Source: a virus (lineage: Duplodnaviria > Heunggongvirae > Uroviricota > Caudoviricetes). From it: a DNA stretch of 6,545 nt. The stretch lies in IMG/VR virus record IMGVR_UViG_2681813274_000007; one strand, given 5' to 3'. Position numbers: made by a program. Shown here piece after piece: positions 1 through 3,000 of the stretch (within the stretch, counting starts at the first letter, position 1; each line of letters starts with the position of its first letter).

Positions 1-3000
1 AACAGTATTCCGAAATGAAAATACAAAGCAAGCTAATTGTCTTATTAAACATTATTATTGCATTTATATTATTTGAGCTTTTAGCTCAAAAATTATTAAC
101 AATTANNNNNNNNNNNNNNNNNNNNNNNNNNNNNNNNNNNNNNNNNNNNNNNNNNNNNNNNNNNNNNNNNNNNNNNNNNNNNNNNNNNNNNNNNNNNNNN
201 NNNNNNNNNNNNNNNNNNNNNNNNNNNNNNNNNNNNNNNNNNNNNNNNNNNNNNNNNNNNNNNNNNNNNNNNNNNNNNNNNNNNNNNNNNNNNNNNNNNN
301 NNNNNNNNNNNNNNNNNNNNNNNNNNNNNNNNNNNNNNNNNNNNNNNNNNNNNNNNNNNNNNNNNNNNNNNNNNNNNNNNNNNNNNNNNNNNNAACACCC
401 NNNNNNNNNNNNNNNNNNNNNNNNNNNNNNNNNNNNNNNNNNNNNNNNNNNNNNNNNNNNNNNNNNNNNNNNNNNNNNNNNNNNNNNNNNNNNNNNNNNN
501 NNNNNNNNNNNNNNNNNNNNNNNNNNNNNNNNNNNNNNNNNNNNNNNNNNNNNNNNNNNNNNNNNNNNNNNNNNNNNNNNNNNNNNNNNNNNNNNNNNNN
601 NNNNNNNNCATTTTCCGGTAATGAGCCGAGTTCAGAAATAAATAACGCGTCGCCGGAAGCCACGTCATAAACCGTTTTACCCCGATGATCTTCAACGAGA
701 TGCCACGATGACTCATCACTGTTGAAAACAGCCACGAAACCAGCCGGAATATCTGGCGGTGCAATATCGGTACTGTTTGCAGGCAGACCTGTATGAGGCG
801 GAATATATGCGTCACCTTCACCAATAAATTCATTAGTTCCGGCCAGCAGGTTATAAATTTTTATGGTCCGTGCTTGTTCACTCATTCTGAATGCCATTAT
901 GCGAGCCTCACAATATAGTTAAATGCGATGTTTTTGACGGTGTTTTCCGCGTTACCAGCAGCGTTAACGGTGATGGTGTGTCCATGTGAACCAATCGCAA
1001 CAGAGTGCGTATGAGCACCAATACCGACAGTATGCGCGTGTGCACCCGCAGATGCTGCTGTGCCGGACAGTGAGTGTGTATGGTTTCCTTCTGAAGATGA
1101 TTTACCTACCCATTGGGAGGTGCCACTGGTTAATGAGCCACTGATACCAACCTGATTAGTCCCGCTAACTTGAGTACTCCCTGCCGGAAACATTCCAGTA
1201 GGTTGACTCCCGCTATTCGTTCTGGGCCCAGTCTGACTATGTTGGTGGGCCCCAGCTGAACTTGTAGAGCCGCTCAGACTGTGCGTATGCGCCCCGGTGT
1301 TATTCGTGGATTTAGTGCCGTAATCAAACGACGATGTGGTTTTCGTCCCCAAATCCGTACTGGATGCGCTGGCGCTGTGGGTGTGCGATTTAATGCCATC
1401 CTGTTCCTGAGACAATACGGCACGACCACTGGCGGGCTTGCCCTTAATCGTCCAGCCACGCATATCAGGGATCACGCCTGACGGATAAGCGGCTGCAAGT
1501 TTCGGGTAAGCAGATTTGTCAAAAGTCTGCCCCTGCATCAGGGCATAACCAGACGGAACGGTATCTGATGGCCACGGGATTGGTGCACCGACTGGATAAA
1601 ACTCTGCAGGAGGATGAGCCGAGGTGTAAAGCTGCGCCCACGGCGACCAGTTTGCGTCGGTCGTATCCCGTCGTGAACGAATAAATGCCGGAGCATGAGC
1701 ACCGCTTGTACCACTCCAGCCGATGAGTAACTCACCTTCGCCAACGGCTGTCATCCCTTTCAGGTGAATGATATTTCCATACGCTGTTGGATATCCGTTG
1801 TTATACACCTCGTATAACTCAAGACCTGCTGCCCCCTGCGTATTGTCTGTCAGCGCGGCTACCCGACCTTTTGAAGCCAGATTAACTGATGATACTGCTG
1901 TTCCACCTGACGGTAGCGCCCCGATCTCTGATGCCGTTGGCTTATTTCTGGAGTTATAGTCCCTTCGCCAGCCAGGTGAATAATCTGTTCCGTGATTAAT
2001 ATAGGTAAACTGGGCGTTGGTTGTTCCGCCACCGCTGGATGTGGTCGGAGTGGTAATGCGGATCGTCATCGCTGACTTTATCCCCATTACTTCAATGACA
2101 GCTCCGGCGAGATGAATATTACCGCAGCCAGTATCAGTAATGATTTTATTATTGCCATAAGACCAGGAACCCTTGCACATCCAGTATGGATGGTTAAATG
2201 CTCCCTGAGAATCCAGCCACTCGATAAACTGTGCAGTCGTCCAGTTTCCTGTTGTTGTGCTTACTGACCCACCGAAGGCACGGCAGGCACCAATATTTTT
2301 CGTAAAGGTGTCTTTGCCAGGGATATCCGCACCGTTCTGATCTTTCTGCAGACGTTTCTCAGCATTGTCATTGGCTGCTTTTACTGCCTTTGGCGTTGCC
2401 GCCAGCGTTTCAGACGTGCTGTTGGTCGCGCTGCTTAGCTGGATTATCCCTTTCTGTGCTGTCGTTGCATCCTGTGCGGTGTATTTCCCGTTAGCCAGGT
2501 CATACGCGGCCTTAACGGCTTTTGGTGTTGCCGCCAGTGACTCGGAAGTGCTGTTAGTCGCACTACTGAGCTGTACTATCCCCTTTTTCGTCGTGCTCGC
2601 ATCCTCAAGCGCCACGGCGGATGCAATATCCTCTGCCCGTTTTGCCGCTGTCTCAGCGCGCGTTGCTGCAGATTCCGCCGTACTTTTGCTCTGAGCTGCT
2701 GCCGTCGCACTACCAGCAGCCTCTGTCGCCTTCGTGGATGCCGTCGTGGCGCTGCCCTTCGCTGCTGACGCCTGTCTGGTCGCCTCATCTTTTGAAGCAG
2801 ACGCCGATGATGCCGATGACGCCGCCGAACTGGCGGACGATGCGGCAGCCGTTTTTGAGGATTCTGCACGGGTTTCCGACGCTTTCGCGTTCGTTTCGGA
2901 TGTCTTCGCTGCGGAAGCTGACCTCGCTGCTGCCGTGGCCTGCTCAGTGGCTTCGCCAGCCTTCGTTGTGGCTGTTGAAGCGGATGATGCGGCGCTTTCT

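Follow-up and report, generated by a model that had tools for sequence, protein, structure and literature searches.

The DNA analyzed here (the window) is a stretch of 6545 nucleotides (nt) from the IMG/VR virus record IMGVR_UViG_2681813274_000007 and represents the tail fiber end of a lambdoid prophage, with all genes, called as open reading frames (ORFs), on the minus strand. It contains the C-terminal part of J (positions 4632 to 6533), lom (4079 to 4561), a lambda-type side tail fiber gene, stf (897 to 3986), recognized by its ORF, Pfam domains, and homology, and the tail fiber assembly gene tfa (103 to 897), which is partly masked by Ns at 106 to 393 and 401 to 608. The order of genes, J-lom-stf-tfa, was established by comparison with the annotated loci of lambda, PhiR68_2, and Turner. 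As called, stf encodes 1029 amino acids (aa) from a GTG at 3986; its true start is likely the ATG at 3980, from which the protein begins with MAVKISG as in lambda. Lambda-type Stf proteins form trimeric side fibers on the virion, which speed adsorption. The window stops ca. 100 nt beyond tfa, where relatives have a Pin-type recombinase, without an alternative fiber end.

The constant N-terminal part of stf (2604 to 3980), delimited by Pfam and blastn, comprises a prophage tail fiber N-terminal domain (PF08400; aa 3 to 136, window positions 3579 to 3980, 239 bits) and an Ala/Ser-rich shaft, and it shares 88 to 98% nucleotide identity with many lambdoid stf genes. The variable distal part (900 to 2313) includes a domain shared with Mu S and with 933W-type fibers, a collar domain (PF07484; aa 800 to 847, positions 1446 to 1589), and a T4 gp37-like needle tip (900 to 1601; PDB 2xgf, E value of 4e-84). 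Over its first 2735 nt, the gene is 98% identical to stf of Escherichia phage PhiR68_2, a stretch that contains both of the repeat copies described below, and over its first 915 nt, it is 88% identical to that of lambda. A plus-strand ORF at 2365 to 2694 was considered as an antisense gene and rejected, given that the Ala-rich region has long ORFs in several frames, a compositional effect.

A catalogued repeat occurs twice in stf

Translation of the ORF confirmed that a core motif beginning with KGI(V/I) occurs twice in frame between 2373 and 2585, as the initial annotation had described. Copy 1 of the core lies at 2505 to 2585 (aa 468 to 494) and copy 2 at 2373 to 2453 (aa 512 to 538). Their start-to-start period is 44 aa (132 nt), and not the 43 residues first given. 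The motif had been correctly recognized, but the true repeat is longer, a unit of 35 aa with the pattern DA(S/T)TxxKG...KAVKAAxD. Unit 1 spans 2499 to 2603 (aa 462 to 496, gene nt 1384 to 1488), and unit 2 spans 2367 to 2471 (aa 506 to 540, gene nt 1516 to 1620). They are joined by a 9-aa linker, LANGKYTAQ (2472 to 2498), which occurs only between copies and is conserved across lambdoid, P2-like, and P1-like fibers. Unit 2 is followed by a conserved tail (2314 to 2366), common to single-copy Stf genes, P2-like H proteins, and Mu S. Repeat detection within the window recovered the pair as 107 nt at 74% identity with a spacing of 132, while the 132-nt repeat escaped Tandem Repeats Finder because its identity is below the sensitivity of the tool.

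Both copies match the Pfam family PF03406 (Phage_fiber_2) in two stretches, with 125.3 bits against a cutoff of 22 (E value of 6.3e-37), the best stretch being aa 464 to 504 against profile positions 1 to 41 of 42. The duplicated motif is therefore a catalogued and already known phage tail fiber repeat. Ghosh et al. (2012; PMC3368898) named this domain Pf2; it was first noticed in lambda Stf, and they described its structure and function as unknown, suggesting from rotary shadowing that it is a small globular node. A full-text literature search for its peptide strings returned no match.

The repeat is widespread. Using the 44-aa unit as the query, we found 2614 cluster representatives at an E value of ≤0.001 among 1.84 billion proteins, and the top 150 of these had 2 to 17 unit stretches per protein. 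A separate search for homologous proteins gave mostly contig-end fragments of ≤300 aa, so that it shows arrangements and is unreliable as a copy number census. That so many database homologues end at contig ends also shows that the region troubles short-read assemblers. Of the 28 PHROG families matched by a 172-aa segment, 18 are annotated as tail, tail fiber, or tail-collar fiber, 9 have an unknown function, and the remaining one is placed under head and packaging (virion structural protein). By tblastn, matches were found in lambda, P2 H, P1 S, Mu S, and the 933W-type short-tailed Stx phages, and further in P2-like Yersinia and Salmonella phages, Haemophilus HP2, and one Bacillus phage. These homology searches bear out the view that the motif is a conserved one of the lambda Stf, P2 H, P1 S, and Mu S fibers. 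At the nucleotide level, 2811 of the 5426 complete E. coli genomes contained ≥80% of the 311-nt region with both copies; the match in strain RM14723, a complete genome, is identical, and many others match with 97 to 99% identity. The arrangement copy 1-linker-copy 2 is also found in P2-like and P1-like fibers.

Divergence and ancestry of the two copies

The two cores are identical at 25 of 27 protein residues, the same count as in the initial annotation, and differ at 19 of 81 nucleotides; the earlier figure of about 20 of some 84 was thus close without being exact, and its statement that nearly all differences are synonymous holds. By codon position, 17 of the differences are at the third, 2 at the first, and none at the second. 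Fifteen codons differ synonymously only, and two differ nonsynonymously (V/I and S/T). Nei-Gojobori counts gave 17 synonymous differences over 21.0 sites (pS of 0.81) against a pN of 0.033. The dS between the copies, proposed earlier as a check, was computed and is undefined (saturated) because of this pS value. Over the whole units, 28 of 105 nucleotides differ (73 to 74% identity), and the longest identical run is 11 nt, so that the pair does not qualify as a near-identical tandem repeat prone to recombination. The protein of the unit is under strong purifying selection, and its synonymous sites are fully randomized.

To put a figure on this randomization, codon use was compared at the 29 residues conserved between the units. 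Twelve of them share a codon, versus 10.5 ± 2.5 expected from the codon usage of the window, and the probability of sharing as low as 12 of 29 or lower is 0.79. Given that codon sharing matches the random expectation, the nucleotide similarity of the copies is a product of protein constraint alone. In agreement, copy 1 and copy 2 are 73% identical and are no more similar to each other than to the motif of unrelated phages (61 to 81%). Full randomization of the synonymous sites marks the pair as old, and the divergence shows no excess of the kind that active recoding would produce. Concerted evolution of the copies was considered and rejected on the grounds of the same saturation.

An alternative is that this divergence is actively selected, recoding serving to block deletion by homologous recombination. 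Adjacent copies are only 69 to 77% identical, with identical runs of 8 to 20 nt, in all of the multicopy lambdoid Stf genes examined (E66 and RM13322) and in P2 H, and the longest identical run of the window pair is 11 nt. However, the codon sharing described above is not below random, and neutral saturation suffices to explain it; near-identical neighbors persist elsewhere, with 85 to 88% identity between adjacent units of Yersinia phage vB_YpM_46 (Yp46) and 100% over 132 nt in E. coli NCTC9088; and products of crossover within diverged copies exist in both directions (see below). Selection for recoding is therefore unlikely, even if it fares best among the alternatives. It is plausible, as the initial annotation proposed, that the divergence lowers deletion between the copies, given that 11 nt is well short of the minimal efficient pairing length of RecA; the effect is explicable by age or by survivorship of diverged pairs, with selection not required.

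As for ancestry, both copies have positional orthologues in other prophages and, with them, separate nearest nucleotide relatives, as the initial annotation had asked to be checked. Copy 1 is closest to the first copies of other lambdoid genes (97% identity to RM13322 and 87 to 89% to AZ162 and E66). Within copy 2, the 5′ half is nearest to the second copy of RM13322 (94%), and the 3′ half groups with genes that share the same downstream tail (98% for Turner, 94% for StfR, and 89% for the P2-like prophage SaT040). Such a pattern would be expected from a lineage-specific scar, in which two one-motif fibers of different origin were joined out of register and both motifs were left behind. Along the same lines, the 3′ half of copy 2 together with the tail is 84 to 90% identical to a P2-like prophage fiber, while copy 1 travels with the lambdoid N terminus. 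Against such a scar, the arrangement is carried by the 2811 complete E. coli genomes mentioned above; P2 H, P2-like Yersinia phages, and P1-like fibers have conserved the linker along with the edges of both units; and single-copy genes have nothing equivalent to the linker. Conservation of linker and edges across families implies that any such join predates the lambdoid, P2-like, and P1-like families. The presence of the arrangement in about half of the complete E. coli genomes marks it as a shared repeat and not a private scar, by the very reasoning of the initial annotation, which had left the choice between an old duplication and two joined fibers. The old pair stands, and a recombination scar specific to this gene is quite improbable.

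Copy number and the constant/variable junction

Copy number was determined with a motif hidden Markov model (HMM) on 20 fetched loci. One unit was found in lambda, Mu S, Turner, K-12 StfR (Rac), the P2-like prophage SaT040, and E. coli AZ162, RM8988, 102651, and Z1322; two in the window, PhiR68_2, PhiR42_1, P2 H, and E66; three in RM13322; four in Yp46 and NCTC9088; and many in the P1-like phage vB_EcoM-813R1. Copy number thus varies (1, 2, 3, or 4) among otherwise near-identical genes. The surroundings of the unit vary as well. Upstream, lambdoid genes have one 13-residue type of edge and P2-like genes have SRRHPDASLTAKGF; downstream, the tails include the 17-residue type of Mu, the P2 and lambda type MDETNKKAPLNSPALT, the type DLAAGKAPSSHTHPW of P1-like genes, and NDNANGRVPSARKVNG. 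Judging from these alignments, units combine freely with differing upstream edges and downstream tails.

We then compared the single and internal units with the window pair at the 28 diagnostic sites that separate copy 1 from copy 2. In the single-copy genes of Turner, StfR, RM8988, 102651, and Z1322, the unit is of the copy 1 type up to site 42 and of the copy 2 type from site 48, with few exceptions. Site 39 is of the copy 2 type in all five and site 100 is back to the copy 1 type, both sites being polymorphic among orthologues, and in StfR and 102651 site 6 is of the copy 2 type and site 9 of neither. The two internal units of NCTC9088 are the reciprocal, with the copy 2 type at sites 6 to 21 and mostly the copy 1 type from site 28. 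In the chimeric units, the crossovers lie in patches of about 5 to 11 identical bases. Together, the single-copy chimeras and the reciprocal NCTC9088 hybrids indicate that copy number changes by unequal crossover within the motif. Units 2 and 3 of NCTC9088 are those identical over 132 nt, and their expansion is therefore recent. Because one junction is common to the five single-copy genes, a single ancestral event may account for all of them, and the set attests to the occurrence of such events rather than to their frequency. Parsimony favors a change from two copies to one rather than from one to two. The census of copy number rests on the 20 loci and on a 60-row sample of genomes described below. 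De Paepe et al. (2014; PMC3945230) showed short and diverged homologies in stf/tfa to be substrates for lambda Red and other Rad52-like recombinases, and recombination of this kind is a plausible mechanism for the changes in copy number. The reciprocal chimeric units are a natural example of how fiber length or the receptor-binding module may be changed via a short conserved coding motif.

The position of the units in relation to the conserved and exchangeable parts of the gene was mapped with a 1.5-kb query centered on the repeats, in which unit 1 occupies positions 598 to 702 and unit 2 occupies positions 730 to 834. There were 4001 genomes matching this query, and only 665 of them kept ≥80% of it. 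In a sample of 60 evenly spaced rows, the 3′ ends of similarity were concentrated at positions 689 to 702 (n = 10), 812 to 840 (n = 16), and 881 (n = 17), in total 43 of 60, and nine further rows matched the full query length. The first two clusters coincide with the 3′ edges of units 1 and 2, respectively, and the third marks where the conserved tail ends, 47 nt past copy 2. Local blastn placed the ends of similarity at gene nt 1477 for lambda, 1478 for AZ162, 1599 for MLI104K2, 1610 for E66, and 1626 for RM13322, and similarity of Turner and StfR to the window stf stops at gene nt 1667 to 1673. In Mu, the annotated boundary of the G segment and the gixL sequence are 62 nt past the unit. Brödel et al. 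(2024; PMC11338833) obtained a working lambda-P2 fiber by fusing lambda Stf residues 1 to 393 (R393) to P2 H from residue 251, and the coordinates computed here put this fusion point 4 residues past the unit in both proteins. On these sequence comparisons, the constant virion-proximal part of the fiber meets the variable receptor-binding part at the motif. The clustered ends, the Mu gix site, and the engineered fusion uphold the earlier proposal of a constant/variable boundary and shuffling point. The unit edges may accordingly be regarded as natural, tolerated fusion points for the engineering of chimeric fibers, with a practical value that is modest but real.

A further possibility is that the motif adjoins a crossover site for site-specific inversion (Gin, Cin, or Pin) and that the duplication is a by-product of shuffling by the invertase. 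An invertase-driven exchange was proposed by Sandmeier (1994), as cited in PMC3945230 and PMC8986868; gixL in Mu is close to the motif, and in close relatives of this prophage a Pin-type serine recombinase directly follows tfa. However, stf has no gix-like core (AAACCNNGGTTT) at ≤2 mismatches, unlike invertible fiber segments (Mu G, P1 C, and e14 P), which have a gix/cix-type crossover site at this boundary within the fiber gene, and the whole window has a single match at this threshold, located in J and at chance level. The crossovers of the chimeric units are, moreover, inside the motif and in register, as in homology-based exchange. In the absence of a gix-like core from stf, site-specific inversion in this gene is highly improbable. 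Chance similarity or an assembly artifact can be dismissed almost entirely, given the E value of the PF03406 match, the 28 differences in 105 nt, which a collapsed or expanded identical repeat would lack, and the identical 311-nt region in the complete RM14723 genome.

The duplication is thus very probably a pair of adjacent PF03406 copies, with a 35-aa unit and a 44-aa period, that separates the constant part of a lambda-type side tail fiber from its variable part. We infer that the unit may act as an autonomous trimeric node or joint because it is invariant, combines with any neighbor, and is compatible with an engineered fusion. As such a self-contained structural element, it would tolerate any neighbor, and crossovers inside it would give functional fibers with distal modules swapped or shaft length changed; at 73% identity and with a longest run of 11 nt, the pair in the window would be comparatively stable against deletion. 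Of the solved structures, those of Mu S are the only entries with the motif in their sequence, and none of them demonstrably covers it; the published Mu model consists of the N terminus and a C-terminal crystal structure, with modeled residue ranges not given. An AlphaFold2 monomer model of aa 440 to 611, from an alignment of 18 sequences, had a mean pLDDT of 42 and was unusable, with helices placed over 11 residues of unit 1 and, in unit 2, over the equivalent residues and on into the tail. A broader reading would make the unit a protein-level universal joint and evolvability device, nearly invariant across lambdoid, P2-, P1-, Mu-, and 933W-type fibers since a crossover at any point within it would give a functional fiber, and in which selected synonymous scrambling would prevent collapse of the array while short identical patches allow occasional exchange of modules and changes in length. 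We find this combination improbable.

Comparison with known fiber systems

The family PF03406 resembles the repeat in the window in its end-to-end match, its occurrence in tail fiber proteins, its length of ca. 40 residues, and its tandem arrangement. Within this family, which ranges from 1 to 17 copies, the window differs in having exactly two copies 44 aa apart, with saturated synonymous divergence. What is added here to the known repeat is modest, namely, the saturation at the codon level and the reciprocal chimeric units documenting a change in copy number. The case may also serve as a calibration point, in that a near-identical protein over diverged DNA proved to be a repeat already catalogued, located at an established boundary between modules.

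Among the closest systems are lambda Stf (P03764), StfR, PhiR68_2, and PhiR42_1, which have the same J-lom-stf-tfa order, PF08400 domain, and Ala/Ser-rich shaft as the window. Lambda and StfR, however, have a single unit, followed in lambda by the P2-type tail VMDETNRKAPL and in StfR by a different distal domain. Only some relatives, among them PhiR68_2 and PhiR42_1, share the distal part of stf in the window.

The mosaicism described by De Paepe et al. (2014; PMC3945230) is similar in that stf/tfa exchange takes place across short, diverged homologies. Their exchanges were intergenic, between lambda and Rac or Qin, while those described here are out of register between units and alter the copy number.

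P2 H, P1 S, and Mu S have the same motif at the junction between the constant and the exchangeable receptor-binding parts, as in the window; the constant/variable boundary of these fibers is credited in PMC3945230 to Haggard-Ljungquist (1992) and Sandmeier (1992, 1994), which we cite from there. Mu and P1 have a gix/cix site just downstream of the motif, at which inversion switches the variable part, in contrast to the stf gene of the window, which has no such site. As in the window, LANGKYTAQ joins two units in P2 H.

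Repeat arrays and a probable recombinant at the motif

Among other fibre genes carrying the phage tail fibre repeat (PF03406), the P1-like S gene of phage vB_EcoM-813R1 (L010 6000-8300) contains ca. 15 units, grouped in super-repeats of roughly 300 nt that are 99 to 100% identical; its annotation splits the gene into four fragments spread over three frames. Either the array is truly hypervariable, or a problem of assembly or frameshift lies behind it. The four-copy stf of Escherichia coli NCTC9088 has undergone a recent tandem expansion: two neighboring units of its otherwise diverged array share 100% identity over 132 nt (L020 1027-1290).

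The stf of E. coli MLI104K2 is a pseudogene whose frameshift falls exactly within copy 2 of the motif (L012 2670-2770), past which a P2-type tail (AVMGETNKKAPL) continues in another frame. The arrangement resembles the product of an out-of-frame recombination at the motif. The database homologues of the motif region (P0001 to P0120) were mostly partial proteins located at the ends of contigs of <1 kb, which suggests that the shared motif breaks short-read assemblies where a genome holds several prophages.

Distal tip of Stf and the tfa flank

The C-terminal 234 residues of Stf (900-1601, minus strand) matched the needle tip of the T4 long tail fiber protein gp37 (PDB 2xgf; E value, 4e-84) and include several His-x-His motifs. 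This lambdoid Stf thus has a T4-type receptor-binding tip at its end.

Most of the adjacent tail fiber assembly gene, tfa, is masked by two runs of N (106-393 and 401-608; 496 bases in total), and therefore its sequence, or anything else under them, is unreadable. In close relatives, a Pin-type serine recombinase lies immediately 3′ of tfa (L005 and L006, 5251-5841; L007, 5539-6129). The window reaches only ca. 100 nt beyond tfa.

Start codon and overlapping ORFs of stf

As mechanically called, the stf ORF starts with a GTG at 3986 (minus strand). Two codons past it, an ATG at 3980 opens the peptide MAVKISG, which is the N terminus of lambda Stf; this ATG is the likelier start. The Ala/Ser-rich shaft region of stf is also overlapped by several ORFs of 100 to 258 amino acids, which lie on the plus strand and in frames other than that of stf (2365-3757, both strands). 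Like the "orf206b" that the lambda record lists opposite stf, they look like compositional artifacts.
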